Assembly: GCA_965227405.1 (NCBI GenBank)
Contig: OZ245758.1
Coordinates: forward strand, 3,124,338-3,188,337
DNA from: Polyangiales bacterium
GTDB taxonomy: Bacteria > Myxococcota_A > Polyangia > Polyangiales > Houyiibacteriaceae
Direction of reading: 5' to 3'
Length of the DNA stretch: 64,000 nucleotides
Below are positions 10,901-27,542 of this stretch, in pieces. The notes below the pieces were generated by a model. That model saw only the letters and a program-made list of their open reading frames with translations, had not been told where the DNA came from and made no database searches. Made by a program: the position numbers and the translations under genes. The first letter of the stretch is position 1. Each line of letters begins with the position of its first letter.

Positions 10901-11980
10901 AAGAGCTTCGGCGTTCGCGCCTTCGGGTAGGATCGCACTGACCCGCTCGGCACCACTGAGACAGCCACCGAACTGTGGCGAACCGACCTCAAGCGGACAC
11001 ATGTCCATGGCGTCGGGCATGCTGTCGCCGTCGCCGTCGACCAAGTCACCGCAGGGGCCGTCGGTTCCAGGCGGAAAAATCACACCGCGACCGTCCATTC
11101 CAACAGCTCCTGCCGTGTCGCAGTCTGCGGCGGGAACGATCACGCGAACTAAGCCCTGTGCATTGGTGCTGCCGCCGTCGTTCAATCCGACTTGATGATC
11201 AAAAAGTTGTGCGTCCGCGGTTTGAGCGATCACGCCTTGGTTGCGGAGGGTGATCACAAAACGCACTCGGGTCCCTGGGTCGCAGTCGCGGAAATCGGTG
11301 GACGTTTGTGACCGACAACTTCCGCTCATCACCGAAAATGTACGAACCCGGACCAGTAGGTCGGGGTGTGGTCCCATCAGTTCAAGTTCAACGTCGGAAC
11401 CTCGTGCGCCGACAACGAGATCGGCGGCGACGCTGTACTCGCGAGGCCGGTCTGGAAGAATTGCGACCACGGCTGCATCGCCACTGGTGCACCCTAAGTA
11501 CTGAGCGCGGCCTGCCTCGTCGGGGCACTCGTCGCCAATGTCGGGCACCCGGTCCGCGTCTTCGTCGGGCGAGCAGCTTCGTGGAACGTCGGGAGGCTCC
11601 AAGGTGATGCCGCCACCCGGTGCAGTCGTGGTTCCTTCCCCGTCGCTTCCCTCAGGCTCACCGGTGACCTGTCGACAACCTGGGTTGCAGTCGTAGCAAG
11701 CCTGTTCACTTTCGATCAGCTCTTGGCTCACGCCCATCACGTCCTCGAGGACGTACGTCGTGGCATCGAGACACTCCGTCCACGCTCCCCCTTGACAGAA
11801 GCGCATGCCGGAACGGCAGGTGAGTCCGTGTTCGCTTTGCTCCACCTTCTCGTGGCACTCGATCGCCGTGCCTTCGACACAGCGGCAACCTTCTGCAGGT
11901 GTGGGACATTCGGGCGCGTCGACGAACGAGGTGTCCCAGCACGCCGTCGTAAACACCAGGGCTAGGAAGAACGAGCGCAT
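7934..11980 (-). CDS. Giant (1348 aa) secreted protein with TSP3/MopE-like Asp-Cys calcium-binding repeats and a C-terminal von Willebrand factor A domain
   Basis: N-terminal hydrophobic MRSFFLALVFTTAC. Repeats DADRVPDIGDECPD, DGDGDSMPDAMDMCP, DRDADGIVDVADDCPD. vWA with MIDAS LIIMDQSGSM...ATDGEPN. Confidence 0.8.
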   Translation of the reverse strand: MRSFFLALVFTTACWDTSFVDAPECPTPAEGCRCVEGTAIECHEKVEQSEHGLTCRSGMRFCQGGAWTECLDATTYVLEDVMGVSQELIESEQACYDCNPGCRQVTGEPEGSDGEGTTTAPGGGITLEPPDVPRSCSPDEDADRVPDIGDECPDEAGRAQYLGCTSGDAAVVAILPDRPREYSVAADLVVGARGSDVELELMGPHPDLLVRVRTFSVMSGSCRSQTSTDFRDCDPGTRVRFVITLRNQGVIAQTADAQLFDHQVGLNDGGSTNAQGLVRVIVPAADCDTAGAVGMDGRGVIFPPGTDGPCGDLVDGDGDSMPDAMDMCPLEVGSPQFGGCLSGAERVSAILPEGANAEALVALQLPEATTEVSFEVDGDPGFVTEWVAEGPTSGFCRTTGAETFSSCDMDARVAFRLRFDGTIAASATPQVYRFEVSIVQDISTTRPPRTRTSRSTYDVVVVVPPIGCDAHGAYGVDGMGGFTGTPAGPPPTGDACETMADRDADGIVDVADDCPDAAGATEFVGCASGAESLTAYTPPALPSSTQLRYVFPSGRSTYRELSAEFVGSGLPFTPSEVAGIDVVSVDGHCAGQSATSVTNCARDTEVLFDVSFLNATIPATDTPRVFDFELHLSRKDTGGSSAVVSAVPVRIVIPASGCSLSGAFSIDGSGGSGDGLSDVVPDHCPADGCACSNGRDDEGDGLIDGADPECTGPNDNDEGSFGTGIPGDNRDPFWQDCFFDGNSGAGDDGCRYHTECITGERPASDSSCQVADRCLAFCAPLAPNGCDCFGCCAVELDDGTTTHVMIADSCSLDVIDDPRFCTTCTQSSECINECGRCELCLGKTVDDLPADCGGPECSTGASCGGDADCSSGEICLLGCCSTTGRTCASLDFEAEPVPPNFLIIMDQSGSMNWGWSGGGSRWEGMKEALFDASDGVITNLQDQVRFAMRTYRGSSCSDVLEGTSTLQLDARDTLNTFISSQSPGGGTPTADAIEQATDWLVDQRVSGLLPTGSTALILATDGEPNGCRGTDNYGRDAVVDRVSEAFDAGFPTFVVSIDEDIAVDHLQAVANAGAGVDSGATYFTVTSAAELRTELTDLITSQLSCALDLSGLIDLSRGACGGGSLSLNSMMVPCSPDDGWVAIGENRIELRGSWCDNFLADGSAMVQANFPCPAASDPCDGVTCDGGAVCELGACICPPHMYLDGGVCVEPEPPSGTFTAVYAAEELCMVPPERPTWTWFMWESSIPDGSSLEVGVRSAETLDALSRLDFEAVTITEQVSRGSVICPPRDGVAPSYCGVDVGSLLTAGGMPHGLFMEVSVTLTAATADPATYPVIRTIRQEALCVPEE

Positions 11981-12027
11981 CGCCGATCGGTTCGGCCGAG
12001 TCGGCTGCGATCTTAAAGTTCAGGTGT

Positions 12028-12552
12028 TCATAAAGACGACACAACACTGTCGATCCATCGCCCAACCTGTCGACGAAACGGCCACATCCACCCGTAGGCA
12101 GGACCAACAAACTGCTCAATCACGTGCTCGCGCAGTGCGGGAGCCTCGGCAGCCTGCTTGCCGTACACCTCGGCCGTGGCGCGAAATGTCTCCGCATACG
12201 CTTCCCACTCGATGCGGGCGCGTCCCCAGGCCAGTCCCATCGGAAGGATGGGAAGCAGGTAGAGCAACGTCATTCCAACTAAGGTGTACCGACGAAACTG
12301 ACGAAGGTGCACAGCCTCGTGTCGCAACGTGACGTACTTGGCGCGTGGGTCGCGTTGGTCCCAGTTGCTCGGCAAATAGATCGAACGACCAATCGTCGTG
12401 ACGTACCGAGTCATGTATGCGCTTTGTCCACCCAAGGTGAGCACTTTGAGTGCACCCGAGATCGCGCGTGAAAACGCGTCGTCGGATTTGTAGAGCACGC
12501 GGATCCCCGGAATCTCTTGGCGAAGCTCCTCGATGTACGCGTCGGGATCCAC
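12028..12552 (-). CDS. Hypothetical protein with a C-terminal hydrophobic segment
   Basis: ORF MDPDAYIEELRQ... with coding-like periodicity. No motif recognised. Confidence 0.45.
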   Translation of the reverse strand: MDPDAYIEELRQEIPGIRVLYKSDDAFSRAISGALKVLTLGGQSAYMTRYVTTIGRSIYLPSNWDQRDPRAKYVTLRHEAVHLRQFRRYTLVGMTLLYLLPILPMGLAWGRARIEWEAYAETFRATAEVYGKQAAEAPALREHVIEQFVGPAYGWMWPFRRQVGRWIDSVVSSL

Positions 12553-12581
12553 GACCGCAGCGTAGCGCGTATGCTCTCCCG

Positions 12582-13127
12582 ATGAGTACGAGTCTGAAGC
12601 TAGTCGAAGACACGATTGAGTCCGCTCGAGAAGGAATCGTCGTCGTGTGCGGACCCAAGTCGGACCCGACTCCCATCACCGATGCACAGCGCGCGGCGAT
12701 CGCGGAGACGAAAGTGAAGCTTCCAGCGAGTATGGAGCGTTGGTTGGAGTTTGATGCCCCCTCACTCGATCTCTTCGATACCGGTGGTGACTTCGTCGCG
12801 CTCACTACACTCACCAAGTTCTTGCTCGCCGAGTTCGAACAAGTGGCCGACCAGCTGCCGCCGGACATGGTCGACGAGATGCGCGCCGGAGTCGTGTACA
12901 TGTTGGGCGAGTACGCCGAACACGGAGACACCCCGGCCGTCGTCCTGCCGGGTTCGGCATCGCAAGCACATGTTCTTCTCTTGGACGGTTCCGACGAACC
13001 GCCCGTGCTTGGCTACGAGAAGGAGGAGTTCTGGGAGAAGTACCCCTCCTTCGGAGCGTGCGTTGCGCACATCATCGGGAACCGCGACTACGAAGAGATC
13101 GGGCCCGACTGGGCAAAGAACTCTTAG
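12582..13127 (+). CDS. Hypothetical cytoplasmic protein
   Basis: Internal ATG 12582 (MSTSLKLVEDTIES...). Divergent from 12028..12552. Confidence 0.45.
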   Translation: MSTSLKLVEDTIESAREGIVVVCGPKSDPTPITDAQRAAIAETKVKLPASMERWLEFDAPSLDLFDTGGDFVALTTLTKFLLAEFEQVADQLPPDMVDEMRAGVVYMLGEYAEHGDTPAVVLPGSASQAHVLLLDGSDEPPVLGYEKEEFWEKYPSFGACVAHIIGNRDYEEIGPDWAKNS

Positions 13128-15265
13128 GGCAGCGAACCGACCAAGTTGAGATCGAGGACGATCGAGTCTTCACGCACATCGAGTCGATCCGCCAACTCGA
13201 TGTTTAGCGCGAATCCACTCAGCCCAGGTGCGAGGGACGACAGGTCGCCCACATCCAAACTCGGCAACGAGATCGCCAAGCCGCCAACAACAGAGTCGCG
13301 AAGCTCGGGCCACAACTGCGTGAGCAACAAGGTGCGCAACGTTTCCTCATCGATCGGCGGACTCGCGTCGGTCGACGAGATGATCCACGTCCGGATGAAC
13401 GGTTCTTCGGCCACGTCCAAGGTGATCGCACCGTCGGCGACGTTCAGTGTCGTTCCGGCTTCGATAGTGATGCCGAAAACCGTGGTCGCACCCAGCGCTT
13501 CGAGCGTGAGTTCCGCTTGACCGATCACGAGGACCAAGTCGTCGGTTTCCGCGCCGCGTGCCGGTCGTGCTACCGGAGGCAGTCGACCCACCAGTTGTGC
13601 GTTCATGACCAAGCCTTCCACGCTCTCCGGAAGAAGCGTGGACGCATCGACATTCAACAAACCGGAGTTCCACAACGCATGGGTCAGCCCATTGAGCAAT
13701 GACACCTTCACACCGAGCTGCACAGGGGTTGTTTCGAAGAGCGGGTTGGCCATCGGGATCAAATCGGCCGCGCCTCGCGAGTCGGGGAACTGCACCATCG
13801 AATCCGTGGACACCGTCATCTGCAGCGGAGCGCGCATGTGCCGGCGGTACTCGCTGTCCAAACCGGCCAGACGTCCGTCGATGTTGAGCGTGACCGGCGC
13901 AAAGATGTCGGTCTCGATCGGGAAGCTCTGATCGCGAAGCGCGCTATCCAACGCACCCAATGCATCGGTAAGCACCGCCGGAATGGCGTCGAGCACGGAG
14001 TCACCAAAAGCGCTTTCCAGTTCGGCTTCGATGGTCGAACGCAACAGACCCTCGGCGAGACGCAAGATCGCGTTGGCCTCGGGCGCGGTGAAGCGACCTT
14101 CGATGTCTTCAATCGCGACACTCAGCTCGCTGACCGACGACTCGATCGGGGAATCCGGTCCGTCCTTGCTGACGTCAACGTGAGCGAACGCCGACACCGC
14201 CGCGGTCATTCCGCCACCGAGGTCGAGCATGGTTCCCTCAAAGTCCAGGTTTCCGGCTGTGTCGAGTTCGAGTGCGCCGATTCGCACAAAGAGTTCGACG
14301 CCTCCATCCACCACCTCAGTGATCACGTCCACGTCCTCGATCCGAGCTTCGGTGATGCGAAGGGTGAGCGTGGGTGGACTGTCGACCACGGGGTCGGGCA
14401 GGAACCCGCGGAAGTCGACGTTGCGAATCACTAGTTCAAACACATCGGCCAAGTCGGTGGTTCGAATGGGCATCGCTGCGGTGTCGAGCGGCGTACCGTC
14501 GTCGAAGAAGTCCTGTCCCAACTGAAGGATCAGCGCATCGTCGAGCATGACCTGCGGCGTATCGCCGTTGGCAGCGGGCGAGTAGACGTCGGCCCAGAGC
14601 ACGTCCATTTCAACGCGCGAATCTTCGGTCACACCGTCGGATGCGACCACTTCGATGTGGTTGATTCCAAAGAGTGCGGGAACGTTCGCGGTAAACGCAC
14701 CCATGTCGTCGAGCTCCGCCTGTACGCCGTTCACGAATACGCGCACGTCACGAGTGTCTGCAACCGAACCGATGACTTCGATCGCGCTGCTTCCGTCGGC
14801 GCCCAGTTCCGCGCCAGGCGTCGGGCTGATCACTTCAAGGTTGGGTGCACCCGAGTCCACCAAGATACGCGCGAAGTCGCACAGCGGGCTTCCATCGGGA
14901 CCCAGTTCGACCGTGCAGCCTGTGAACTCGACGTACCCCTCTTCGATCAATTCAAACACTCCGTCGCCCATGTCGGTTGCGGCGCTTGCCGGGTCGGCAC
15001 TCCACGTGACTTGGGCGTCGGTGATGACGAGGTCGTCGACGTCGCGGACTTCGGCGAGCATGCGAATCGACTGTTCGGTTCGATACACCGAACGCGGGGG
15101 TGACACGCTGACTTCGATGCTGGCCGGCTCTGCACCTGGAGGTGCGGGTGTGTCGGTGGCCGAATCGAGCATGCCCGCATCCGGCGTGCCTCCGTCGTCA
15201 TCGTCCCCACAGCCAAAGGCCAGTAGGGAGGCAAGAGAAAGCAAGAGTGCGCGCTGCATGATCAA
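13124..15265 (-). CDS. Large secreted lipoprotein, paralog 1 of a tandem pair
   Basis: MIMQRALLLSLASLLAFGCGDDDDG lipobox. C-terminal domain (ALWNSGLL...GRLPPVA) paralogous to 15262..17949. ATGA overlap with the upstream gene. Confidence 0.65.
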   Translation of the reverse strand: MIMQRALLLSLASLLAFGCGDDDDGGTPDAGMLDSATDTPAPPGAEPASIEVSVSPPRSVYRTEQSIRMLAEVRDVDDLVITDAQVTWSADPASAATDMGDGVFELIEEGYVEFTGCTVELGPDGSPLCDFARILVDSGAPNLEVISPTPGAELGADGSSAIEVIGSVADTRDVRVFVNGVQAELDDMGAFTANVPALFGINHIEVVASDGVTEDSRVEMDVLWADVYSPAANGDTPQVMLDDALILQLGQDFFDDGTPLDTAAMPIRTTDLADVFELVIRNVDFRGFLPDPVVDSPPTLTLRITEARIEDVDVITEVVDGGVELFVRIGALELDTAGNLDFEGTMLDLGGGMTAAVSAFAHVDVSKDGPDSPIESSVSELSVAIEDIEGRFTAPEANAILRLAEGLLRSTIEAELESAFGDSVLDAIPAVLTDALGALDSALRDQSFPIETDIFAPVTLNIDGRLAGLDSEYRRHMRAPLQMTVSTDSMVQFPDSRGAADLIPMANPLFETTPVQLGVKVSLLNGLTHALWNSGLLNVDASTLLPESVEGLVMNAQLVGRLPPVARPARGAETDDLVLVIGQAELTLEALGATTVFGITIEAGTTLNVADGAITLDVAEEPFIRTWIISSTDASPPIDEETLRTLLLTQLWPELRDSVVGGLAISLPSLDVGDLSSLAPGLSGFALNIELADRLDVREDSIVLDLNLVGSLP

Positions 15266-17949
15266 AGCCTCCCGAAGCTGCCGCGCAGCACGAAGTGTTG
15301 CTCTTCGCGGGCGAGCGCCGGTGTTCGAATGCCGAGTTCGGCGCCGGCGGGCAAGCCGTACGCGCTCAACGAACTCGGGAGCTCGAACGAGGGAATCGGG
15401 AGTGCAGGCAACGAATCGTTGAGCACGTTGTCGACGATCGACTGCACGAGCGTTCGCAGGAAGCCTTCCAGCACATCACGCGTGGAGGGATCGAGCGAGA
15501 CGTCGCCCGTGCTGAAGAAGAGCTCGTCGATCGAAATCGCGGAGAAGCTCAAATCGTTGCCCGAGAGAGAAACATCGGTGCTGGCAACAGCGCCTAGCGT
15601 CACGCGAATCGGCTCTTCGAAGAGACCCGGATACACCAAGTCGAGATCCAGTGCGCCGATGCCGACTTCGACACCTTCACCGGTCAGCTGTGCGACTGGC
15701 GGAAGTCGACCGTTGAGGTTCGCGCTCACGCCTGCGGGCAATCCACCACCAAGGTCGCTGCCCGTGACCTCGGCATCGAGCAAGCCTCCTCTCCACAACG
15801 CGTGCATGACCTGGTTGAACACACCGGTTTGGATCGATACCGCCATGTTCTGTCCAGATAGCCCTGGGTCATCGAGGAAGGCGGGGTTGGGCGAGGTGCC
15901 CGGCGGCATCGCAACGCCCAGCGTCGGAAACGCGACGTTGACCGGGCCGCTGAAGCGCGAACCGATGCCGATGAGCATGCGCGCCGTAGACGTATCGACA
16001 CTGGAGAAGCCGACTCCGAAGTTGATCGGCAGCGTTCCTCCGTCGAGTCGCGGCACGTTGAAGGTCGAGCCAAGCGTGGAGATATCCAAACCGCTCAGCA
16101 GTCCATCGAGAACGTCGTTGAAGCTGTCTTCGATGTAGTCGCGCAGCAGGTTCGAGACGAGGTTGCGAACCGTGCCGTTGAGAAGACTGACGACAATGTT
16201 GATGACTGCGCCACTAAGGCCGCTAAACGAGGTGCTGATGCTTCCCACGCTGACCGACACGCTGCCGGGTCGAACCGAAATTCGGGGTCGTCCTGCGGCC
16301 AGGCGTACGTCGAAGATCATGTCGACGTCGACCGAGGAGAACGTTGCCCAGCCCGTGGTGTCGAAGTTAATGCCCAGGGCACGACCATCGATGCGCAACT
16401 GAATCCGCGTGTTTCGGAGGTCCACTCCAGCGCTCAGCCCATCGTTGACGAGTGCCAACGACGTGGAGTTTGGACCGTTGAGCTGCGAGTTCACGTAGCG
16501 AACCTGAGTTCGCAGCGCGCAGCCGAAGATCGTTCCTTGGTCACAGCTGCTCGGCTTGAGCGGGTTGTTCGCGAGGAGCTCTGCGTGGAGCGTGTCGCGC
16601 AGACCCGAGCTATTGACCACGGTGTGAAGCAGGTCGTTGAGCGAGTCGAGTCCGTCTGCGCGGTTGCCGTCGTCGATAGCACCCATGCCGAGCTTCAACG
16701 AGATCGTGTCGTCGGTAGGTGAGGAGTCAGGGGACCAACGGTTTGACACGAGGAACGTGCAGGTCGTGCTGTTCTCGGCCCCGAACGTATCCGTCGCGAC
16801 AACGTCGATGAAGTTCATGCCGAAGCGCACCGTTTGCGCAGCGCTGAACGTTCCACCGTCGAGGCTGGCCGGAGATCCGTTGACCATCACACTGGCAATG
16901 CCGCTGGTGTCGTCGACCGTGCCGCTCACCGTGATGGTGGAGCCAGGAACGGCGTCGACCATGCTGCCATCTCGTGGACCGGTGCACTGGATGGTCGGGC
17001 CGTTGCCGTTGACCACGATCGTGGTTTGAGCGACCAAGGGATCGCCGCTTTCTGTGGGCGGATCCACCGTTGCCGTGACGGTGTAGGTGCCGTCTTCATC
17101 GTAGCGAAAGCGGTTTCGGCCAAGCGTTGCGCCGGCGGGTGCCGAGACGAAGCCAACGTCTGCATCCTCGACCGTGTTGCCGTAGCGATCGGTCACAACA
17201 GCTGCGATCTCGATGACCTGGCCGATGGCGTACACCGGTTGGTCAGGGACTTTGGCGATGACCAGGTTGGCCGGAACGGTCGGGGTGACTTCGACGCGCT
17301 CGGAGGTGCTCGTCGCCCCGGGGAGTTCGCAGCTGACTTGGTACTGACCGGCCACGGTGAACTCGGTGGAGAGATCCGTGGTGGTGTTTCCGTCTTCGGC
17401 GGGGTTCACCGACATGCCCGGCGCCGCATCCGCAACACGGTTGCCGTAGGCGTCGAATACTTCGCACGTCACGTTGACGGTTTCACCGGCCTCGACTTGG
17501 GAGCGATCCACCGTTGTGATTACTTCCGCGGGTGCAGCGGGAATGATCTCGACGATGGCGGGACTCTCGTCGGTGAGCATCAAGTCGGGGAATGCACAGC
17601 TCACTTCCACTTCGCCGACGCGGATGGCGGTGATCATTCCGTCCGCGCGTTCGATCGACGACTCAGGCGACACTCGAATTTGAGGCGTGCGACCTGCCGC
17701 GGAGTAGGGCTCACCGTTCTCATCCAAGATGAGACACGTGACGTTGATCAGTTCACCTGCGGTGACTTGATCGGGCGCCATGGTTTGCACCAAGACCGGG
17801 TTGGGAATGTCGACCGGAGGCAGACTTGTGTCGGGTCCACCGTCGGCGGGAATCGTCCCCGTGTCGTCCATTGGAGGCGGATTGTTGCCACCACACGCCA
17901 TCGCGACGCAGGCGAGAGTCCACACAAACTTACGAACCATGAAAAACAC
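15262..17949 (-). CDS. Large secreted lipoprotein with Ig-like (Big/DUF11-type) repeats, paralog 2
   Basis: MFFMVRKFVWTLACVAMACGG lipobox. Repeated ~90-aa segments (VNVTCEV..., YQVSCELPG...). C-terminal HALWRGGLL...GRLPPVAQ block shared with 13124..15265. Confidence 0.7.
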   Translation of the reverse strand: MFFMVRKFVWTLACVAMACGGNNPPPMDDTGTIPADGGPDTSLPPVDIPNPVLVQTMAPDQVTAGELINVTCLILDENGEPYSAAGRTPQIRVSPESSIERADGMITAIRVGEVEVSCAFPDLMLTDESPAIVEIIPAAPAEVITTVDRSQVEAGETVNVTCEVFDAYGNRVADAAPGMSVNPAEDGNTTTDLSTEFTVAGQYQVSCELPGATSTSERVEVTPTVPANLVIAKVPDQPVYAIGQVIEIAAVVTDRYGNTVEDADVGFVSAPAGATLGRNRFRYDEDGTYTVTATVDPPTESGDPLVAQTTIVVNGNGPTIQCTGPRDGSMVDAVPGSTITVSGTVDDTSGIASVMVNGSPASLDGGTFSAAQTVRFGMNFIDVVATDTFGAENSTTCTFLVSNRWSPDSSPTDDTISLKLGMGAIDDGNRADGLDSLNDLLHTVVNSSGLRDTLHAELLANNPLKPSSCDQGTIFGCALRTQVRYVNSQLNGPNSTSLALVNDGLSAGVDLRNTRIQLRIDGRALGINFDTTGWATFSSVDVDMIFDVRLAAGRPRISVRPGSVSVSVGSISTSFSGLSGAVINIVVSLLNGTVRNLVSNLLRDYIEDSFNDVLDGLLSGLDISTLGSTFNVPRLDGGTLPINFGVGFSSVDTSTARMLIGIGSRFSGPVNVAFPTLGVAMPPGTSPNPAFLDDPGLSGQNMAVSIQTGVFNQVMHALWRGGLLDAEVTGSDLGGGLPAGVSANLNGRLPPVAQLTGEGVEVGIGALDLDLVYPGLFEEPIRVTLGAVASTDVSLSGNDLSFSAISIDELFFSTGDVSLDPSTRDVLEGFLRTLVQSIVDNVLNDSLPALPIPSFELPSSLSAYGLPAGAELGIRTPALAREEQHFVLRGSFGRL

Positions 17950-17989
17950 CCCAAGCTACGGAAAACCCCGCGGGAGTAGGGTATCCCAA

Positions 17990-18705
17990 CGCCTACGCGG
18001 GCACCACGATCGCGCTGAATACCCTCATCCGTGTGCGGCTTGGGAAGACGCTTTCGCTCGCGTCCTTCCCTTTTGCTTCGTGGGCATGGGCAAAGGCAGG
18101 GGCAGGTTTACCAGGACGACCCAGGGAGTGAGCTGCTCTTACCTCGAGCAGCCTGCGTCTCGCCGATACGTCGTCCGCGTCCACCGACGTGCCCATGCCC
18201 ATGCCCATGCCCAGACTAAGGAGGACGATGGTTAGCGAAGAACCGGGGCCTATCCCCATTCTCCTCTTCCTTTTCCCGCGTTGCAGTTCGAATGACGCTC
18301 GGCTTCGGGGAAGTTCTGTTCGAAGCGTTGGACCTATCGCTATCTGCTTCTAGGGAAGAGGAATAGGAAGGGAAAGGTCCGTTTGTGCGGGACGCTCTGC
18401 GTCGCATGGCTTGGGAAGACGCGTTCGCTCGCGTCCTTACGTCGTCCGCGTCCACCGACGTGCCCGTGCCCGTGCCCATGCCCATGCCCACCAGACTAAG
18501 GAGGACGACGCCTAGCGAAGAACGGAGGCCCTGCACACCTATCCCATTCCTCTTCCTCTTCCTCTTCCTTTTCCCGCGTTGCAGTTCGAATGACGCTCGG
18601 CTTCGGGGAAGTTCTGTTCGAAGCGTTGGACCTATCGGAATGCGCCCACCAACTACTCAGTCACCACGATCGCGCGTGAGAACGCTGAATACGGTCGCCT
18701 ACGCG
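17990..18705. repeat. Complex non-coding direct repeat: two ~280-bp units (unit 1 carries a ~105-bp insertion) plus a partial third, with internal (CATGCC)n and (CCTCTT)n microsatellites and inverted CTCTTCC/GGAAGAG arms
   Basis: Unit core cgtcgtccgcgtccaccgacgtgcccatgcccatgcccatgccc...actaaggaggacga...ccttttcccgcgttgcagttcgaatgacgctcggcttcggggaagttctgttcgaagcgttggacctatcg is present at ~18166-18338 and ~18440-18638 with few mismatches. caccacgatcgcgc...gctgaatac occurs at both ends. Confidence 0.65.
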
Positions 18706-20031
18706 TAATAAAGGTCGCTGTGTAGACCCCAGGCTCGCCCGTCACTGCAATCGCTCCATCCGCTTCGAATGCGCGGTCGACCGAAACTTCCAGAAGGACT
18801 TCTTCCTCAATGGTGGGTGCAGGTCGTGCGGTCGGTCGTGGGTCGTCGCAGCCAAATGCACGAGTAATACGAAACGTGGCTGGTCCCGCTGCTTCGTCCA
18901 CACGAAGCCGAACACGAAGCCACGCCATCGTCGAGTCTTCGGCGCGCGAACCATCCGACGCGTACCCATCGATGGTCAGAAAGCTCTCGCCCTCACCGAT
19001 CGCGACGACTCCACTGCGCATGCCTTCGACGATGTCGGGCCACGTGTCGCCGGTTGCCCACACGTAGGTTCGCGGATAGCCGATCGCAGGATCGAAAAGT
19101 CGACCGGGTGCGGGCGTGTTGATGCGATGACAATCGCTGGCTCCGATCGGAGTCACGTTTCGTCCCGCCAACAAATCGCAGCGCCACGCATCGAATGCCA
19201 TCGCGTCGTCATCGCGAAAGCTCAGCGTGCCATTCCACACTTCCATCGCTTCGTAGCCCCAGTTCATGACTCCGCTGTCGGCCCAATCAAACGAGGTCCA
19301 CACGGCATCGGCATAAGGATGGTTGAGCACGGTGTAACAACCGCGCTCACGCGCCTGCATGAGCACGTTGCCTCCACTGATCGTTCCGCGTGGACGATCG
19401 ATGAACGGACTGTCGCGATCGAAGGTGTCCAGATCGATGGGAAGACAGCCGATGTGTCCGGTTGGATCGGTCGGAATCTCGCCTTCCATCACTGGACTGA
19501 TCTCGTTGCCGTCGATCATCAGAAAGCGACCGGGCTCCGTAAGCGCTGCAGCCGTGTCCCAGTACGGAAACTCCGGTCCCATGTTGAAGAGATCCGGATC
19601 TTCGTCAGTGGTGGTCACGTCACTGCCGGTGGAGTTGCTGTGGTCGGTCAGCACGACGAAGTACAGGCCCTCCTCCAGCGCACGCGTTTTGATGTCTTCG
19701 GGGAAACTGTCCCCACCGGTGTCGTTGCTCGCGCCTGTCGCATGCACGTGAACATCGCCGGCGTACCAGGCTCCTGCAGGGTCGTCTTCGAACGCGAGTT
19801 CGTCGGATGGAGTCAGGCCAAGGTCAGGTGGACCCGCGTCGGACTCTGCGTCTCCGCTGTCGGAGCTGCTGTCAGACCCAGCATCGGAACCGCTGTCGGA
19901 GGCTCCGCTATCCGCTTCGTCGTCGTCGCCTCCGCATGCCACACACGCGACAAGCGCGACGCTAATCCATGCGTACTTCGCCTCACGGCTACTCACAAAC
20001 AAACGAAAGGATGTCGCTGCACGAGACATCG
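18653..20031 (-). CDS. Secreted lipoprotein with PHP-like metal-dependent phosphoesterase domain
   Basis: Internal start MSRAATSFRLFVSSREAKYAWISVALVACVACGG (lipobox). GDVHVHATGASND...VVLTDHSNS His-rich PHP-like motifs. Start is uncertain (ORF extends to 20293). Confidence 0.45.
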
Positions 20032-21320
20032 TTCCACTCTCCGTTGGGCCGAAGCGAACCGCAATCTTCGTTGCCGGAGTTGTTGGGTTCGTCGTTGGCC
20101 CAGTTGCAGTCTCCGGAGACGCAGTCACATGGACCAAAACCCGAGCAGTCCGTGAACTGGGTTCCATTGACCCAGAACCATTCTTCTTCGTCGGCTCGAT
20201 CGCTGGCGCCGATCCACCACGTGAAGTCGGTGCGGATAGCGCGAAGACCTTCGATGACCGCGTCGTTTTCGGCATCGCTGTCGAGAACAGCAAGGTCCAT
20301 CATGAACGTGTTGCACGTGACGCGTGCACTATCCCAGTCGCGGGGAATCTCGGGACACGCGATGTAGCGCCCCACCGGAAGCTCCAGGGGTTCGCACGCA
20401 CAGCCTTCGTCGATCGCCGTGTCGCAATCGTTGTCATCGCCGTCGCACAGTTCGCTCGGCATGCGCGGCTGGCAGAAAAAGCAGTCGTCGTCGCAGTCCA
20501 TGGAGTCGGTGATCGTCCCGGGCGGCTGTTCGCATGCTTGAACTTCGGTGCCCGGATCGCCAAACCCATCGCCGTCGAGGTCCTGGTAGTAAAACCCGCC
20601 TGCGTCCTCGTCGGTGTTGCTATCGCAGTCATCGTCGACGCTGTTGCACGACTCTTCGATCCCAGGGCGTCGTGTGTCGGTGGTGTCGTCGCAGTCCATC
20701 GAGTTGGAAACAAAGCCGTCGGGAAGCGCACAGGCTTCGATCATCATCGAGGGTGTACCGAATCCATCGCCGTCCGCATCGCGGAAGTAGATGGTGCGCA
20801 CCATCTCGTCGGTCATCCCGTCGCAGTCGTCGTCCAGGTCGTTGCAGGTCTCACCGGTCGGCGTGACGGCACCCATGCACGGGCTCCACGTCTCACCGTC
20901 ACAGGTTTGAGTTCCAAACTCGCACGCGCCGACATCCGTGTCGCCACACGCACGCGGTCCACCCGAACACGCGCACTCTTCGTCGACGGCTCCGTCACAG
21001 TCTTCATCCAGTGCGGCGGTACAGTCTTCGTCGCCGGGCAAAATCGAACACGGGCTCCACGCACCGCCGCTGCAGGTTTCGACACCGTCCATGCACACGC
21101 CAGACAGACCACACGAACGGGTCGTCAACATCTCGTCGATCGATCCGTCGCAGTCGTCATCGACACCGTTGCAGTCCTCGGCGCTTGCTACGCACGCATC
21201 AAACCCGCTGTCATCGACGCCACCATCACCCACGCCTCCATCGTTGCTCGTCAGTGCACCGCGTGGCACTCCGCAGGACAGGCAAAGCACGCACGTCACG
21301 AGGACACGAGTCACGGAATC
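19989..21320 (-). CDS. Secreted Cys/Asp-rich lipoprotein with MopE-like putative metal-binding repeats and a C-terminal C-type lectin-like domain (paralog 1)
   Basis: Likely GTG start at 21320 (VTRVLVTCVLCLSCGVPRG). Repeats DADGDGFG / CDDxDxxxxPG. C-terminus WNDVSCSDILSFVCE matches the C-type lectin WxDxxC...FVCE signature. Confidence 0.6.
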   Translation of the reverse strand, partial: DSVTRVLVTCVLCLSCGVPRGALTSNDGGVGDGGVDDSGFDACVASAEDCNGVDDDCDGSIDEMLTTRSCGLSGVCMDGVETCSGGAWSPCSILPGDEDCTAALDEDCDGAVDEECACSGGPRACGDTDVGACEFGTQTCDGETWSPCMGAVTPTGETCNDLDDDCDGMTDEMVRTIYFRDADGDGFGTPSMMIEACALPDGFVSNSMDCDDTTDTRRPGIEESCNSVDDDCDSNTDEDAGGFYYQDLDGDGFGDPGTEVQACEQPPGTITDSMDCDDDCFFCQPRMPSELCDGDDNDCDTAIDEGCACEPLELPVGRYIACPEIPRDWDSARVTCNTFMMDLAVLDSDAENDAVIEGLRAIRTDFTWWIGASDRADEEEWFWVNGTQFTDCSGFGPCDCVSGDCNWANDEPNNSGNEDCGSLRPNGEWNDVSCSDILSFVCE

Positions 21321-22663
21321 TCGCAGACGAAAGCCAGGTTGGTGCCGCAGTTGATGTCCGCCCACTGACCCCCGATATCCGCGCGGAATCTTGCGCAGTC
21401 GTTGGCAAATGCCGAGTCGGGTTCCCCTGCGAGCCAGTTGCAGTAGCTCACGCAGGTGCATCCAAAGCCGGTGCAGCTTGTCGCCAGAGCCGACCCGTCG
21501 GCCCAGAACCAGTTGTTGCCCGAACCTTCGACGCCGCCTGCCCAGAAATCGCGATCGTAGGGATCAAGCAACGCCCACACTTCCGCGTTCTCGGTCGCAT
21601 CGTCGATCTTGACCATGTCCCAACCTGCCAAGCGACACGCCGTGACCGCGTCGTTGTAGTTGTCGACGGCAAAGTCGCAGATGGCGTAGTCACCGTTGGT
21701 GGGCGTCGACTCGATGAAGCAGTCGATGCAGCCCTCGTCCACCGTGGTGTTGCAGTTGTTGTCGAGTCCGTCGCACAGCTCGATCGGAAAACCCGGTCGG
21801 CATTCGGGACAGCTGTCGTCGCAGTCGTCGGGGTTGTCGACGAGACCTGGACCCCCACAGCCCGCCATCAGCATCGTTCCGTCACCGAACCCGTCGCCGT
21901 CCGCGTCGACCCAGAAATCGCGCGTCAGCCCTTCGTCCGGCACGCCGTTGCAGTTGTTGTCGAGCCCATCGCACACCTCGGTGCCGAGTGGATTGCAATC
22001 GAAACACGCGTCGTTGCAGTCCTCGTCGTTGAGCACACGGCCCATCGCAGGATCACAGTCCGTCATGGGGGCGCCTGCGCCAAAGCCGTCCGTGTCTGCG
22101 TCGGTGTACCAAGTGTTCGGCGTGGACCCGCCTTCGCACGCGCCCATCAATCCCGCGGGTGTGCAGGTGGACGTTCCGTCTCCGCACGGACCACACGATG
22201 TCGTGGCGCCGGGTTCGCATTCGCAGTTCTCGTCGATCATCCCGTCGCAGTCATCGTCGTCGCCGTTGATGCAGACTTCGGCTGCGCTTGGATCGTCGAC
22301 GTTGGTGCAATCGGCTTCGAACACGCCACCGACGCACGCTTGTCCGCATGCGGTGCCAACCCCGCACGAGCGAACCAAGTCATCTTCATCGACAGTCCCA
22401 TCACAATCACTGTCGACGCCGTCACAGAGGTCGTCGCCTGGCATGCACGCGTCGGTGCCTCCATCAAACGCGTCAACGCCGACATCGGCCGGTCCTGCGT
22501 CTTCGCCCGCGTCGACCCTTGCATCATTGCCTGAGTCGCGCGCATCGACCTCAGCATCGACCGTGACGTCAGGTGTCGCGTCCGCCACACCTGCGTCGGC
22601 GCCATCCAGCCCACCGCGCGGAACCCCGCAACCCAACAAAGCTAAACACACTACCCAACGCAC
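21311..22663 (-). CDS. Secreted Cys/Asp-rich lipoprotein with MopE-like repeats and a C-terminal C-type lectin-like domain (paralog 2)
   Basis: MRWVVCLALLGCGVPRG lipobox. DADTDGFG, DADGDGFGD, CDGLDNNC repeats. C-terminus WADINCGTNLAFVCE. Confidence 0.7.
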   Translation of the reverse strand: MRWVVCLALLGCGVPRGGLDGADAGVADATPDVTVDAEVDARDSGNDARVDAGEDAGPADVGVDAFDGGTDACMPGDDLCDGVDSDCDGTVDEDDLVRSCGVGTACGQACVGGVFEADCTNVDDPSAAEVCINGDDDDCDGMIDENCECEPGATTSCGPCGDGTSTCTPAGLMGACEGGSTPNTWYTDADTDGFGAGAPMTDCDPAMGRVLNDEDCNDACFDCNPLGTEVCDGLDNNCNGVPDEGLTRDFWVDADGDGFGDGTMLMAGCGGPGLVDNPDDCDDSCPECRPGFPIELCDGLDNNCNTTVDEGCIDCFIESTPTNGDYAICDFAVDNYNDAVTACRLAGWDMVKIDDATENAEVWALLDPYDRDFWAGGVEGSGNNWFWADGSALATSCTGFGCTCVSYCNWLAGEPDSAFANDCARFRADIGGQWADINCGTNLAFVCEIP

Positions 22664-22698
22664 AGAGGCTCAAGGTTAGCGCTCAAAGCAGGGGAACT

Positions 22699-23397
22699 CT
22701 ACTCGAGCACGCGTCTGGCGCGGTCGGCGTAAATTCCCGTCGGATGCGCTCGCAAAAACGCACGTGCACGACGTTGTGCAGCCGCTTCACGCCCCATTCG
22801 GACCAATGCTTGAATCGCCAGTAGCTCGCGTTCGGCCCGCAACTGACCACGTGGATGGTCGCGCGCGTGGCGTCGCGTCACCCGAAGCGCAGCGCGTGGG
22901 TCGCGTTCTAGCTGCGCACGTGCGTCTTCAAGGAGTGCCGCTTCCGCTTGGAGCGATTCCAGCGTGGCGGGTTCTGCGCTGCGACGGGTCGTCGGTTGCA
23001 TCACCGGCTCCTCGGCGACCACCGCCACTTCCCTCGGCTCGGGGACAGCTTCGCGCACGGTGGGGACCGCCGGTGTCGAAACAGGGGGCGGCGGCAATTC
23101 GGCGGTTGGTGCTTCGGTTGCTACCTCGGGCGTGTCTGACTGGACCATGTAGGTGCCCGCGACAGCAGCGATGGAGAGTCCGCCTGCAAGAAGCCAGAGT
23201 TTGACGCCCGTGGCGGTTGTCGCGCTGGCCACAGCCGTTGTGCTTGCTGCGGCAACACCGCCGGTGGCAACCGCGCCTGCAAGCGCTGCAGCTTTGGTTT
23301 TGGCGTCGAGTTTGGGCGGCGTCACGTGCTCGGTGAAGAGTTCGCGGAGCTCCGCCGGGACATTCGGATCGTCGCTCATGCGGATGGGATCGGTCAT
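22699..23397 (-). CDS. Anti-sigma factor-like membrane protein (cytoplasmic N-terminus, one TM, Pro-rich linker, C-terminal helical/TPR-like domain)
   Basis: Start MTDPIRMSDDPNV overlaps the sigma stop (ATGA). TM segment LWLLAGGLSIAAVAG. Position directly downstream of the ECF sigma. Confidence 0.55.
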   Translation of the reverse strand: MTDPIRMSDDPNVPAELRELFTEHVTPPKLDAKTKAAALAGAVATGGVAAASTTAVASATTATGVKLWLLAGGLSIAAVAGTYMVQSDTPEVATEAPTAELPPPPVSTPAVPTVREAVPEPREVAVVAEEPVMQPTTRRSAEPATLESLQAEAALLEDARAQLERDPRAALRVTRRHARDHPRGQLRAERELLAIQALVRMGREAAAQRRARAFLRAHPTGIYADRARRVLE

Positions 23398-23978
23398 GCG
23401 GCACCTCGTTGAAGCTGAGCGCGCTTTCGGTTCCACACGCGCTTGAGTTCCGCGCGGGCGTGATGCAGACGCGAGTAGACGGTGCCGACCGGAACTCCGA
23501 TCTGTTCCGCGATCTCGGCGCAAGAAAGTTCTTCAAGTTCAAACATGACCAGCACAGCGCGACGGTCGACATCCAACTCATCGAGCAACGCATGCAAGAG
23601 TTCGGCACGGTTCCGCGCGATCGCAGCGGCTTCGGGCGTGTCGTGATGCCCATCGTCTTGCGGTTGTTCGGTCGGCTTCTCGCGGCGGACATGCGCACGA
23701 CGTCGGTAGTTGGATGCGACGCGTTTGCAGATCCCGAACAACCACGTGGTGAGTTTGGACGAGCCATCGAACGAATCGAGTCGTCGGTGCACCACCACAA
23801 AGACCTCCTGCAGCATGTCTGGGAGGTCCGCTTCGGGGACACCCATGCGATGCAGATTCCGCCACACGCGTTCGGCGTGTTCGTCATGAATCTGTTCCAG
23901 CTGCAGCACGTTGGGTGAATGTCGAAAGGTTGCGTGACGCTTCAAAGAAACATCGAGGCCTTTGGGATTATTGATCAA
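23394..23978 (-). CDS. ECF-family RNA polymerase sigma-70 factor
   Basis: Region 2 LQEVFVVVHRRLDSFDGSSKLTTWLFGICKRVASNYRR. Region 4 HTH LEELSCAEIAEQIGVPVGTVYSRLHHARAELK. Confidence 0.8.
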   Translation of the reverse strand: MINNPKGLDVSLKRHATFRHSPNVLQLEQIHDEHAERVWRNLHRMGVPEADLPDMLQEVFVVVHRRLDSFDGSSKLTTWLFGICKRVASNYRRRAHVRREKPTEQPQDDGHHDTPEAAAIARNRAELLHALLDELDVDRRAVLVMFELEELSCAEIAEQIGVPVGTVYSRLHHARAELKRVWNRKRAQLQRGAA

Positions 23979-24986
23979 TCAGAGCGTGACGCCGAACTCG
24001 AGTGCCAAGAGCGGTGCTGCGCGCGCGGGTGAGAACACCGGCGAAGGTTGGCCTTCGACGTTGAGATCGTGGTCGATCAAAGGCAACGACACACCCGCGT
24101 AGAGCGCGAGGTGAACGGGTCCTGCCAACACGATGGCAGGGCGGACGCCAAGCGTGGCGCCGAGGTAGACCCGGTCGCCAGGATCGCGCGGAACGGGGTC
24201 GTACACCACGACGTGAAGCGCGCCCACATCCAGTGCGGCACAACCCTGGACGTCGACACGTCCCCACGATGAGCCGACGCAGAGACCGATCGATGCAGAT
24301 GTGAGTCCGACTCCGAGTTTGGCGCCGTTGTGTCGAATGTGCTGTTCCGGCCAGAAGCGTGCGTCGACCACCCAACGAAGAAGCGCGGTGATCGCGCCGT
24401 CGACGCGGAGGCGGAACCCGTAGCCGCTATTGGGGACGAGGTTGTAGGCGTACGTTGCGCCGATGGAGAGGCGCGGGGATCGAAATTCTGTTTGGCGCGT
24501 CTCAGTCGGAGTTTCGGTCTCAGTCGTGTTCGCTTCAGTCCCAGTCTCCGCTTCAGTCTCAGTTTCAGCGTTAGCGTCAGCGTGAGTCTCAGCGTCGGGT
24601 TCGGTTTCCGCGTTGTTCGCGAGCGCGGCTTCGGGATCGATCGCCAACGCCACCGCCAACGTGATCGCCTCGGCCAAACCTGTGCACTCCTCTGCTTCGC
24701 TGCTGAGTTCGCGCTCTCCCACCAACGCGCCTGTCGCATCGCGTTTGAAGAGCCGCACCGTCCAGACACCGTTTTGGTGTTCGACCGTTCCTTCCAGGAA
24801 CACGTTCGCGGGTGACGTGAACGGGTCGTAGCCCAAGCGAGATCGTACGTCTTGCCGGAGTGTCGTCGCACTCGGACAACTCGCGGCGTCCGAACCGCGC
24901 ACCCAGGAGAGGTCGACGCCTCCCGATTGTGCCGAAGCCGACGAACAAACAAGTAAGAAAGCCACGGCCCAGCCGCGCATACTCAA
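23979..24986 (-). CDS. Secreted protein with signal peptide, Thr/Glu-rich linker and beta-barrel-like C-terminal domain. First gene of the ECF sigma operon
   Basis: MSMRGWAVAFLLVCSSASAQS signal. (ETxA)n tract. Gly/aromatic alternating C-terminus. Stop abuts the sigma start. Confidence 0.55.
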   Translation of the reverse strand: MSMRGWAVAFLLVCSSASAQSGGVDLSWVRGSDAASCPSATTLRQDVRSRLGYDPFTSPANVFLEGTVEHQNGVWTVRLFKRDATGALVGERELSSEAEECTGLAEAITLAVALAIDPEAALANNAETEPDAETHADANAETETEAETGTEANTTETETPTETRQTEFRSPRLSIGATYAYNLVPNSGYGFRLRVDGAITALLRWVVDARFWPEQHIRHNGAKLGVGLTSASIGLCVGSSWGRVDVQGCAALDVGALHVVVYDPVPRDPGDRVYLGATLGVRPAIVLAGPVHLALYAGVSLPLIDHDLNVEGQPSPVFSPARAAPLLALEFGVTL

Positions 24987-25107
24987 AGCGTATCAAACGT
25001 CGGATTCCCGGTCGTGCGAACCCGCGGCTGAGCGACCTTTCCTCTTCCTGTTCCTCTGAGCGATCTTTTTCGTGAAGGGATCGTGCGTGCATTGCGATTC
25101 ACCCTGC

Positions 25108-26775
25108 ATGGAGGTGGGTGTGAAACTTAGCTTGCGGACCTTTTTGCTTTGTTTATGCGCGGCGTGCTCTTGCGACTCGACAGTCGCAGGCCCAGCCGAT
25201 GGCGGTGACGAGGACGGCGGTATGGATGCTCCGGACTTTGATTCAGCCGTGGATGCCAACGGTGAGGACGCGGGTGACGACGCAAACACACCGGACGGAG
25301 GGATGGACGACGCCGGTCCGATGATGGACGCGATGATGTGCAACGACGTCGACGGCGATGGGGTGACGGACTGCGACGGGGATTGCGACGACGACGATCC
25401 GCTGACCTATCCGGGCGCCCCCGAAGTCTGTGGCGATGGTGTCGACAACGCGTGCGGATCCGATCCCGACCCCGCTTCGCTCTGCAGCGGCGTGGGCACG
25501 CACGTATCGCCTGCTGGCGATGACAGCACAGGAGACGGAACGCGCGAAAACCCAGTCCGCACGATCACGCAGGGCATTGCCAACGCAGTCAGCATTGGCG
25601 GCTCCACAACGGTCGTGGTGGCTGGAGGCGACTACAACGAGACCGTGACGGTTGTGGAAGGCGTGTCGATCACCGGTGGATTCGACTGCCCCTCGTTGCC
25701 GTGCTCGTGGAACCACGATCCGAGCTCGCATACCTCGACCGTGGATGGAGGCGGTACCGCCAACGCGGTCGAGATCGATGACACGATCACGCGTGCAACG
25801 ACGATCTCGCACTTGAGCCTTCGTTCGGGACGCGATGGTGTGTCAGTTCGTGGAGGCGCACCGACGCTTCGCACGCTGAACATCGACGCGCGTACCGGCA
25901 TGAGCGCCTTTGGCGCAGGTACCGATCCCTTACTGGAGAACAGCACCGTGTTGGGCATGAACGCGGGCGTCACGATCGAAGGAAGCGGAGAGATTCGATC
26001 TTCGGATATCGAAGGCTCGCCTGGACTCACGGTGCGTGGTTCGGTGTTGGTCGAAGACAACGTGATTCACGCGGCCGGGGATAGCGGCATGACGATCTGG
26101 GAGGGCAACCCGCAGATCTTGGCCAACGTCATCAACGAAGACGGCACACGTGTGGGCACGTGCGGCTTTGGCTTTTGCGCGGGCATCGCAATCTGGGGTG
26201 GTAGTCCCTACATCGCCAACAACGTCGTGTACGGCATGGGCGGCGACCGCTCGGCATCGATCGCCATCGTCCACGGCGAACTGGTCGTGGAGCGACCCAT
26301 CATCAACAGCAACACGTTGTACGCATCACGGACGGCGGGGAGTGGATCGGCGATCAGTGCTGGCGTGACGTGCGAAAGCTTCTTCGGCATCGCGATGTTC
26401 GGAGAGATTCGAAACAACATCGTGATCGGTGCATCCGCAGGCCAGTCGTTCGGGTTCTACGAAGAAGACAACGATCCGAGCACGACGTGTCGACCGGTCA
26501 TGATTGAAACCAACCTGTTTTCGGGAATCGATCATGTCGCTCGCTTCTTCAACGGTGGCGATCAGTTCTTCACCGCGGTGGCCGACGCAGATGCCGAAGC
26601 GTGGGCGACTAGCAACCAAGCCGGTGATCCGATGTTGGATGCGAACCATCGCCTGATGGCAGGCTCGCCTGCGATCGACATGGGCGTTGCGACAGACGCA
26701 CCCAGTGTGGACCGTGACGGTGATGCGCGCCCCGCAGGTGGGGGGTACGACATCGGAGCCGACGAACGTCCGTGA
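25108..26775 (+). CDS. Secreted right-handed parallel beta-helix (pectate-lyase-fold) protein with N-terminal MopE-like metal-binding motif
   Basis: MEVGVKLSLRTFLLCLCAACSC signal. CNDVDGDGVTDCDGDCDDDDPLTYPGAPEVCGDGVDNAC. Repeated ...VEGVSITGG.../...NSTVLGMNAGVTIEGSG... beta-helix turns. Confidence 0.6.
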   Translation: MEVGVKLSLRTFLLCLCAACSCDSTVAGPADGGDEDGGMDAPDFDSAVDANGEDAGDDANTPDGGMDDAGPMMDAMMCNDVDGDGVTDCDGDCDDDDPLTYPGAPEVCGDGVDNACGSDPDPASLCSGVGTHVSPAGDDSTGDGTRENPVRTITQGIANAVSIGGSTTVVVAGGDYNETVTVVEGVSITGGFDCPSLPCSWNHDPSSHTSTVDGGGTANAVEIDDTITRATTISHLSLRSGRDGVSVRGGAPTLRTLNIDARTGMSAFGAGTDPLLENSTVLGMNAGVTIEGSGEIRSSDIEGSPGLTVRGSVLVEDNVIHAAGDSGMTIWEGNPQILANVINEDGTRVGTCGFGFCAGIAIWGGSPYIANNVVYGMGGDRSASIAIVHGELVVERPIINSNTLYASRTAGSGSAISAGVTCESFFGIAMFGEIRNNIVIGASAGQSFGFYEEDNDPSTTCRPVMIETNLFSGIDHVARFFNGGDQFFTAVADADAEAWATSNQAGDPMLDANHRLMAGSPAIDMGVATDAPSVDRDGDARPAGGGYDIGADERP

Positions 26776-26787
26776 TAGAATTGCCGC

Positions 26788-27363: not shown

Positions 27364-27394
27364 TTCTCGACCGCTTCGAAGCTGTTCCGGGTGG

Positions 27395-27525: not shown

Positions 27526-27542
27526 CGCCCACCAAACCAGAG

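Follow-up and report, generated by a model that had tools for sequence, protein, structure and literature searches.

What occupies the unusually structured gap behind a PHP-domain gene of a myxobacterium, and does it control the surface-lipoprotein operon that follows? The stretch of DNA analysed, called the window below, comprises 64,000 nucleotides of Polyangiales bacterium (GenBank assembly GCA_965227405.1, contig OZ245758.1, positions 3,124,338 to 3,188,337), across which genes were mapped by codon usage. In it, 712 nt without a credible reading frame separate the TAG stop codon of the CehA/McbA-like PHP-domain gene (18653-18655, minus strand) from the ATG of an 892-aa lipoprotein gene (17940, minus strand). 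Our analysis indicated that this region is probably made of nested, duplicated and slippage-prone palindromic repeats, similar to repetitive extragenic palindromic (REP) sequences and miniature inverted-repeat transposable elements (MITEs), which fill an insertion hot spot and do not constitute a conserved control element.

Empty site and duplicated gene end

The gap was found to be much shorter in relatives. In L009, a contig of a metagenome-assembled genome with ~85-86% DNA identity to the window, the PHP stop codon and the lipoprotein ATG were 50 nt apart, and in relative P0002 (PHP protein 86% identical), available as a protein record without DNA, the next gene began 72 nt past the stop. 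Judged from these sequences, relatives show an ancestral state in which the PHP-domain and 892-aa lipoprotein genes would have been about 50 nt apart, and the ancestral pair was probably co-transcribed. A 31-nt segment of L009 (1142-1172) aligned to both 17985-18015 and 18645-18675 of the window, and about 46 nt, running from GTATTC via the final 13 codons of the PHP gene, with its stop codon, to TTGG, were single in L009 and double in the window. The two copies and the DNA between them were as follows.

18645-18692, minus strand: copy 1 of the target, the functional end of the PHP/CehA-like gene with its TAG stop at 18653-18655, as defined by translation and the empty-site alignment
17985-18024, minus strand: copy 2 of the target, duplicating the final ~13 codons and the stop in decayed form; 10 nt are deleted, and a TAG of its own is present
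18026-18641: strain-specific block of 616 nt, absent or replaced in relatives; the L001 alignment ended at 18025, that of L003 started at 18642, and that of L013 stopped at 18653

Copies 1 and 2 have common bases that differ from L009, which places the duplication in the lineage of the window. Copy 2, together with the conserved leader, is predicted to fold into a small hairpin (17975-18030, z -3.8), and was also present, in its decayed form, in the sister strain L001.

Between these borders, closely related strains carried different DNA. L001 was 98.9% identical to window 5250-18025, with an identical lipoprotein, and past 18025 read CGGGAATGGGAAAGGGAAGGGGAATGG..., while L003 was 97.0% identical to window 18642-27366 and after TAGTTGGTGGG continued as TCGCGGATCCGGAAGCTTGGAAGC.... 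L013, which came from the same sample as L001 (SRR23272279), was 97.4% identical up to the PHP stop codon, directly behind which it carried a 4.5-kb accessory island (8784-13250) with four genes, encoding an 82-aa open reading frame (ORF), a 621-aa OLD-family ATPase-TOPRIM protein (PADLOC models AriA, GajA and Old, E 1e-21 to 1e-14), a RelA_SpoT-domain protein (PADLOC PDC-S33) and a homologue of the NA37 nucleoid protein. The island looks like a candidate defence island. After its genes, L013 13326-13495 contained a copy of window 18252-18075, the rod hairpin of unit 1 described below, at 83% identity, and since this sister-strain assembly is a separate one, the region is not an assembly artefact. 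According to these sequences, the gap between the PHP and lipoprotein genes occurs in four or more haplotypes, and 18026-18641 is specific to the window. Logan contigs started or stopped inside such repeats (L001 at its start, L003 and L013 at both ends), and the far end of L001 should fall in the hairpin at 4797-4882.

Nested repeats of the region

A repeat finder returned five pairs of directly repeated segments, whose order was kept across two units:

18262-18339 and 18560-18637: direct repeat D1, 78 nt, 100% identity
18211-18276 and 18491-18556: direct repeat D2, 66 nt, 76% identity
18158-18213 and 18429-18484: direct repeat, 56 nt, 89% identity
18037-18067 and 18408-18438: direct repeat D4, 31 nt, 97% identity
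17985-18015 and 18645-18675: outer direct repeat, 81% identity

A 62-nt core query gave 2 copies in the window against 0 expected from shuffles. On the basis of these repeats and of the inverted repeats (I2, I4, I5 and I7), the block was divided into modules.

18037-18072: module a, a short GC hairpin (GGGAAGACGC..GCGTCCTTCCC; fold z -3.4) with a second copy at 18408-18438
18073-18157: module b, the G-rich arm of NGGGCA units (18081-18107) and an inner stem
18158-18213: module c, whose 3' part is (TGCCCA)4
18214-18261: module d, with AAGGAGG on the plus strand and a second copy at 18490-18543 (from D2, 76%, and a three-way alignment with L013)
18262-18277: module e, the pyrimidine array Y1
18278-18339: module f, copy 1 of the core, within D1; Y1 and core f are related to window 36230-36277 at 82%
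18340-18400: module g, the purine arm GGAAGAGGAATAGGAAGGGAAAGG (18354-18375) and its flanks, complementary to Y1 and Y2 (I4, I5, I7) and 87% identical to 36155-36207
18408-18637: unit 2 (a' c' d' e' f'), a truncated tandem copy that lacks the G-rich arm as well as ~100 nt from inside the rod hairpin; it holds (CGTGCC)5 at 18459-18489 in c', array Y2 at 18544-18575 and copy 2 of core f at 18576-18637

A sequence-only reading of this locus had described a direct-repeat region with microsatellites, and both were recovered with the repeat finder and Tandem Repeats Finder. The units, which it took to be near-identical, were ~81% identical overall (over 210 nt), with identity complete in the 78-nt core alone. 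The insert it assigned to unit 1 was confirmed as a unit 1-only stretch of about 100 nt (18068-18157), and the motif it saw at both outer ends (caccacgatcgcgc..ctgaatac, at 17985-18024 and 18645-18692) could be explained by the empty site in L009 as the duplicated PHP 3' end. Its inverted arm pair in each unit was not found: there is one purine arm, sited between the units and complementary to the pyrimidine array of either, and the G-rich partner arm of unit 1 has no counterpart in unit 2. It was correct in treating the predicted ORFs as by-products of the repeats, in that the 42-codon ORF, opened in unit 1 by AAGGAGG-ATG, has ACG at the same position in unit 2 and in the sister strain. A 107-aa ORF spans unit 2; taken as a protein-level proxy for further copies of the element, it gave no match in a search, and exact look-ups of the called PHP gene product and of a 236-aa lipoprotein matched no record.

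The plus-strand AAGGAGGACGA of module d, which reads UCGUCCUCCUU on the gene-sense strand, resembles the 3' end of 16S rRNA (anti-Shine-Dalgarno). The resulting CCUCCUU was conserved in all three copies (18214-18230, 18490-18506 and L013 ~13345-13365), and an ATG followed it in unit 1 only.

Hairpins and arrays of variable length

The stems of the block consisted of short tandem arrays, three of which were detected by Tandem Repeats Finder:

18190-18213: TGCCCA x4
18459-18489: CGTGCC x5.2
18547-18574: TTCCTC x4.7

Modules b and c together formed a complete rod hairpin ("type C", 18079-18215, 137 nt), with a minimum free energy of -83.5 kcal/mol against a shuffle mean of -55.8 (z -6.8; none of 200 shuffles was as stable). 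In this hairpin, the arm at 18081-18107 paired with the (TGCCCA)4 arm at 18187-18213 (inverted repeat I2, 27 nt, 85% complementary), with inner stems between them. A second pair of arms was 22 nt long and 86% complementary, and the pairing of modules e and g around f (18260-18378) gave a weaker fold (z -2.0). The geometry of the stems was regular, with runs of 5 bp interrupted by one mismatch at the free sixth position of every hexamer. The whole region was more stable than shuffles on both strands (z -3.7 on the gene-sense strand and -2.3 on the other), as expected of palindromes at the DNA level. A G-quadruplex may form at most locally: a G4Hunter score of 1.5 was reached by 18082-18106 only, the C in each unit lowering the score of the other arrays. 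Formation of an intrastrand triplex was considered and is unlikely given loops of 79-250 nt (compare PMC4666352).

Array lengths differed between copies and strains. In the three-way alignment, GGGCAN units numbered ~3 in the L013 copy, 4 in unit 1 and 5.5 in unit 2, and TTCCTC units 2.7 versus 4.7. The (GGAAGA)n array adjoining core f was missing in L013, where the C-rich arm was identical. From these differences in unit number and presence, the arrays change faster than their own flanks. The 78-nt core was 100% identical between the units but only about 70% identical to the sister-strain version, its neighbours in the units being 76-89% identical; on this sequence pattern, a recent duplication or gene conversion in the source strain fits better than long-term constraint. 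Across the window, 7 of 13 period-6 arrays were located in the 7% that is non-coding (p 1e-5).

Related elements in other gaps

Modules of the block recurred at an unrelated site. Window 18343-18394 and 18553-18608 matched 36155-36207 and 36223-36277 at 82-87%, within a gap (36114-36300) between the convergent genes of a 232-aa lipoprotein and PolX that was filled by a ~170-nt hairpin. Its arms were AGGAAN / NTTCCT hexamers, again forming 5-bp runs with a single mismatch at each sixth position. The gap measures 187 nt in the window and 12 nt in L012 (PolX protein 84% identical), and in L014 (PolX protein 87% identical) the two genes overlap. The gap at 35068-35402 measures 335 nt in the window and 9-18 nt in L012, and in L014 a hairpin unlike that of the window precedes the 227-aa lipoprotein gene. 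No target duplication was visible at the 35-kb and 36-kb insertion sites in comparison with L012. L012 11566-11598 carries a 16-nt tandem duplication (CTAGAGCGGGAAGGCG x2.1) of a gene 3' end including its stop codon, exactly where the window has the 36-kb hairpin, and this is a second gene-end duplication at such a site. In L014 4060-4200, a long inverted repeat (GTGATCGCCGGCGTCTATCCGGTT / AACCGGATAGACGCCGGTGATCA) stands where the window has an octamer-armed hairpin.

A second family, with (NGGAAGGC)n arms, was represented by two copies of ~170 nt at 4786-4943 and 35081-35259 (z -13.6 and -11.8), which were 76-84% identical. Its core was a near-perfect hairpin of 38-40 bp with CCGGAAGTAC(NGGAAGGC)3 arms, lengthened by a T-run at one end and an A-run at the opposite end; the genes around one copy are convergent, and those around the other are co-directional. 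Octamer-armed hairpins were considered as bidirectional terminators and rejected, the T-run lying 5' and the A-run 3' of the stem on both strands, so that the runs merely lengthen the stem. All four convergent gaps of more than 150 nt in the window contained a long hairpin. A long hairpin without hexamer arrays (arms CGCTCTATTTTTTAGTGGAAGTTTCGAAGG / CCTCGACTTCGAATCTTCCACAAAATTAATGAATAGAGCG) spans the convergent gap at 59383-59563, and a convergent gap also holds the hairpin at 27405-27525, which is armed with octamers (CTGGAAGC ATGGAAGT ... / GCTTCCAGGCTTCC).

The sister-strain sequences that replace the block behind the PHP gene were related to such elements elsewhere in the window. The end of L001 at this site matched the (CCATTC)n array at 35310-35346 (86%, E 1e-6), and that of L003 matched the octamer-armed hairpin at 27408-27434 (89%, E 1e-4). 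At the 27.4-kb gap itself, L003 1-116 contains unrelated sequence with (CTCAAT)3 at its end, the look-alike of the 27.4-kb element being behind the L003 PHP gene. The ~5-kb segment at window 22700-27540, which encodes an extracytoplasmic function (ECF) sigma factor, a beta-helix/MopE protein and a CAP-domain protein, is missing from L012, which is otherwise syntenic, and one of its edges coincides with the 27.4-kb hairpin gap.

More distant relatives also carried such structures. In L004, whose PHP ortholog is 61% identical, the gap behind the PHP gene (11333-11680) contained a (CCCCTG/CCCTTG)n arm and a complementary (GGCAGG/GGCAAG)n arm, to which an 85-nt tandem duplication added a perfect (GGGCAC)7 without a partner (fold z -5.5). 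The design, a single arm with two partner copies, is that of the window region. L007 7778-8060 contains a lone, perfect (CACGGG)6 array in a gap, followed by a tandem unit of ~29 nt (cgaccgtcaccgagggagcg...) that extends into an annotated gene, and no such arrays were present across 21 kb of L006. Hexamer-armed hairpins were found to recur in several Polyangia-type lineages, with no detectable homology beyond the arrays. Lone pyrimidine- or C-rich hexamer arrays (CCATTC, TTCCTC, CCCCTG, CCGGGT) also occur on the sense strand without a nearby inverted partner (window 35320-35345 and 25036-25057; L004 9917-9962 and 6015-6052), three of them ~40-85 nt upstream of a start codon; the one at 25 kb is identical in L003.

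Searches for RNAs, signals and mobility genes

No Rfam match reached gathering thresholds in the whole window, and with E up to 10 the region gave nothing relevant, the one match within the block being a chance-level miRNA (E 6.2). A weak match to the DUF3800-XI RNA at 17797-17860, within the lipoprotein coding sequence (23.2 bits versus a gathering threshold of 37.8, E 0.012), is probably due to chance. No tRNA or tmRNA was found by a scan for them. A consensus scan of 17700-19000 revealed no sigma-70-like promoter hexamer pair on either strand. The terminator consensus scan gave a single site, antisense (plus strand, 18047-18064), where 1.3 were expected by chance; no U-tract lay directly 3' of a stem on the sense strand of the region, and the GC stem with U-tract on the transcribed strand that defines an intrinsic terminator was not found. 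The block had no match in plasmid and phage collections, and no integrase was encoded in its 616 nt or in the readable 4.7 kb of the incomplete L013 island. In the literature on hexanucleotide, G-quadruplex, REP or MITE repeats of myxobacteria and on the array sequences, such elements were not described; coverage was incomplete, which makes this weak evidence of novelty.

Comparison with known repeat systems

REP sequences, bacterial interspersed mosaic elements (BIMEs) and REPINs are palindromic intergenic repeats mobilised by RAYT transposases (PMC3116915, PMC3733652), and REP palindromes have a conserved GTAG or CGTC tetranucleotide at one end (PMC3733652). Like the block, they are non-coding and strictly intergenic, form long imperfect hairpins, occur as several families per genome, differ in presence among close strains, build composite clusters and cause breaks in short-read assemblies. 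The imperfect intergenic palindrome of 20-40 nt that characterises REP was also seen here (arms of 27 nt and 22 nt, all elements lying between genes). However, no GTAG or CGTC tag was found at the arm ends, which start or end with hexamer units (TGGGCA, GGAAGA), and REP and REPIN elements have neither stems of hexamer or octamer arrays (5 fixed bases and 1 free base) nor a 46-bp target duplication. REP and REPIN elements number tens to hundreds per genome, often with the repeats on either side of a RAYT (Y1 HUH transposase) gene; the 64 kb contained 2-3 copies per module family. Bacterial MITE-like repeats such as Correia elements, ERIC, RUP and BOX (reviewed in PMC3184786) are likewise short, non-autonomous, intergenic and palindromic, are able to alter co-transcription and vary among strains. 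In contrast to MITEs, the arms of the block are microsatellite-like, no parent insertion sequence is known, and no terminal inverted repeats with a target duplication of 2-10 bp could be identified for individual modules, the sole duplication seen being that of ~46 bp around the whole block. Since these two defining features, the REP tag and the MITE termini, were looked for and not found, membership in REP/REPIN or MITE families is not claimed.

The BoxC/TM-ECO repeats of E. coli are intrastrand-triplex motifs of 37 nt with loops of 1-6 nt (Holder et al. 2015, PMC4666352). They share with the block a G/C-rich composition, an intergenic position, the potential for non-B DNA and the layout of one arm with two partner copies; they are not linked to gene function, and rearrangement among strains is more frequent at loci with such motifs (PMC4666352). 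The block differs from them in its loops of 79-250 nt and in its arms, which are arrays of 16-32 nt.

The phase-variable promoters of Neisseria and Haemophilus are contingency loci built on simple sequence repeats. The block resembles them in its short tandem units, which precede a surface-protein operon and whose number varies by copy and strain. Unlike in those loci, the repeats are neither between promoter hexamers nor within a reading frame, and the whole region is dispensable.

Origin of the block and alternative explanations

We propose that DNA would have been inserted right behind the PHP stop codon with a target duplication of ~46 bp, of which copy 1 kept the gene end and copy 2 decayed. 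The 616 nt between the copies would represent palindromic modules with stems of degenerate hexamer arrays (GGGCAN, GGAANN), and a tandem duplication of 300-370 bp would have produced the truncated unit 2. Array lengths would then shift by slippage, and entire modules would be gained, lost or swapped between strains. The block itself may be REP/MITE-like repeat DNA, selfish or neutral, and its hairpins may form in single-stranded DNA or in RNA. As RNA, the stems that separate the PHP gene from the lipoprotein operon may serve as a barrier or stabilise a 3' end; in DNA form, they may make the site fragile, recombinogenic and prone to capture new DNA. Such a site would explain the other cargo in the sister strains, including the 4.5-kb defence-like island. 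Read from the alignments, the locus has undergone insertion with a ~46-bp target duplication, internal tandem duplication and array length change; its content turns over among strains at 97-99% identity, and its hairpin potential is strong.

Several observations weigh against this explanation. Classical transposons produce far shorter target duplications than the 46 bp seen here, and a widely staggered break or att-type (attachment-site) recombination fits this length better than classical transposition. Neither a transposase nor an integrase nor RAYT was found among the scanned predicted genes (all but PolX and two short ORFs) of the 64-kb window, which represents <1% of the genome. Each module family has only 2-3 copies, within 64 kb of a 9.07-Mb genome and in a few contigs, and the family pattern CTTTTCCCGCGTKGCNNTTCGA gave one match, judged to be chance, in a Stellaceae coding region among 185,579 species genomes and two unrelated matches in JGI metagenomes, neither collection including the source genome. 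In addition, the perfect 78-nt core amid neighbours at 76-89% could reflect selection on the core instead of recent gene conversion, and a regulatory side effect of the block on operon expression is possible.

The sequence-only reading had favoured a variable-length promoter or 5' untranslated region with phase-variation-like control, or a structured non-coding RNA, and had suggested a comparison of microsatellites among strains. That comparison did reveal variation in length, in the GGGCAN units (~3, 4 and 5.5), in the TTCCTC units (2.7 versus 4.7) and in the absence of (GGAAGA)n from L013; the block is upstream of a surface-lipoprotein operon, and lone pyrimidine arrays are located 60-85 nt upstream of other start codons. 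A phase-variable promoter, in which hexamer slippage alters spacing or structure upstream of the operon and switches its expression on or off, is nevertheless very improbable, with no promoter-like hexamer pair on either strand, arrays 240-630 nt away from the ATG at 17940 and outside any conserved frame, and a conserved 85-nt leader that lies outside the block. Moreover, the entire block is missing in relatives and replaced in sister strains, and the same modules occur in unrelated gaps, including those between convergent genes, where a promoter is not expected. An RNA under selection, whether a cis-acting leader, an attenuator, a terminator-insulator or a small RNA in which one arm alternates between two complementary arms, would agree with the strong folding of the gene-sense region and of the rod hairpin (z -3.7 and -6.8), with the recurrence of the one-arm, two-partner layout in the distant L004 (11333-11680, z -5.5), with one compensatory C-G to T-A change between strains in an inner stem and with the CCUCCUU motif conserved in three copies. 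The same inner stem, however, contains two disrupting changes, Rfam gave no match, no U-tract follows any sense-strand stem, the palindromes are stable on both strands like a DNA-level repeat, and the element is not conserved at the locus in relatives, which makes such an RNA improbable. Absence or replacement of the block in relatives, the lack of a promoter and of Rfam matches, the distance to the operon and the presence of modules elsewhere leave both a programmed switch and a conserved non-coding RNA unsupported.

The block may also be read as the scar of an integrative island, which is compatible with the repeat-filled hot spot described above. A site-specific recombinase would have targeted the PHP 3' end, the 46-bp repeats would correspond to attL and attR, the 616 nt a cis-mobilisable remnant after loss of cargo, and the hairpin repeats the ends of the island. 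Repeats of a gene 3' end at both borders, as in an att-flanked island, were indeed present (18645-18692 and 17985-18024, against a single copy in L009), direct repeats of the PHP 3' end bordered variable DNA in three of three strains, at least 4.9 kb of accessory, defence-like genes lay between them in a sister strain, and the rod hairpin adjoined the same repeat side in both strains. We consider this origin unlikely, since no integrase was encoded in the readable part of the L013 island or in the window, the L013 junction falls exactly at the stop codon without the TTGGTGGG of copy 1, so that the junctions are not uniform, the modules are also found in ordinary gaps between genes, distant from any island, and plasmid and phage collections gave no match.

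We advance tentatively, and with more doubt than confidence, a wider proposal: the modules may belong to an as yet undescribed class of palindromic intergenic elements of Polyangia-type Myxococcota, with stems of degenerate 5+1 hexamer or octamer arrays (GGGCAN, GGAANN, NGGAAGG), which form or spread through hairpins or slippage, for example by template switching or break repair duplicating tens of target bases, and make hot spots that capture accessory DNA, including defence genes, behind stop codons. The GGGCAN-armed hairpins with a duplicated arm in L004, at 61% protein identity, together with the (CACGGG)6 array in L007, hint at a clade-wide process rather than a single family.

Meaning for the genome and the clade

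Annotation of the block as a regulator, as a non-coding RNA or as a set of small ORFs is not warranted. In the window, intergenic gaps are inflated by hairpins with microsatellite stems relative to those of relatives (712 versus 50 nt; 187 and 335 versus 0-18 nt), and these hairpins coincide with strain-specific gene content. Short-read assemblies break at the repeats, a point of importance for metagenome binning and for pangenomes of Myxococcota. If it is true that such repeats make insertion hot spots, they would offer a way to study how large myxobacterial chromosomes that are otherwise syntenic acquire accessory and defence genes.

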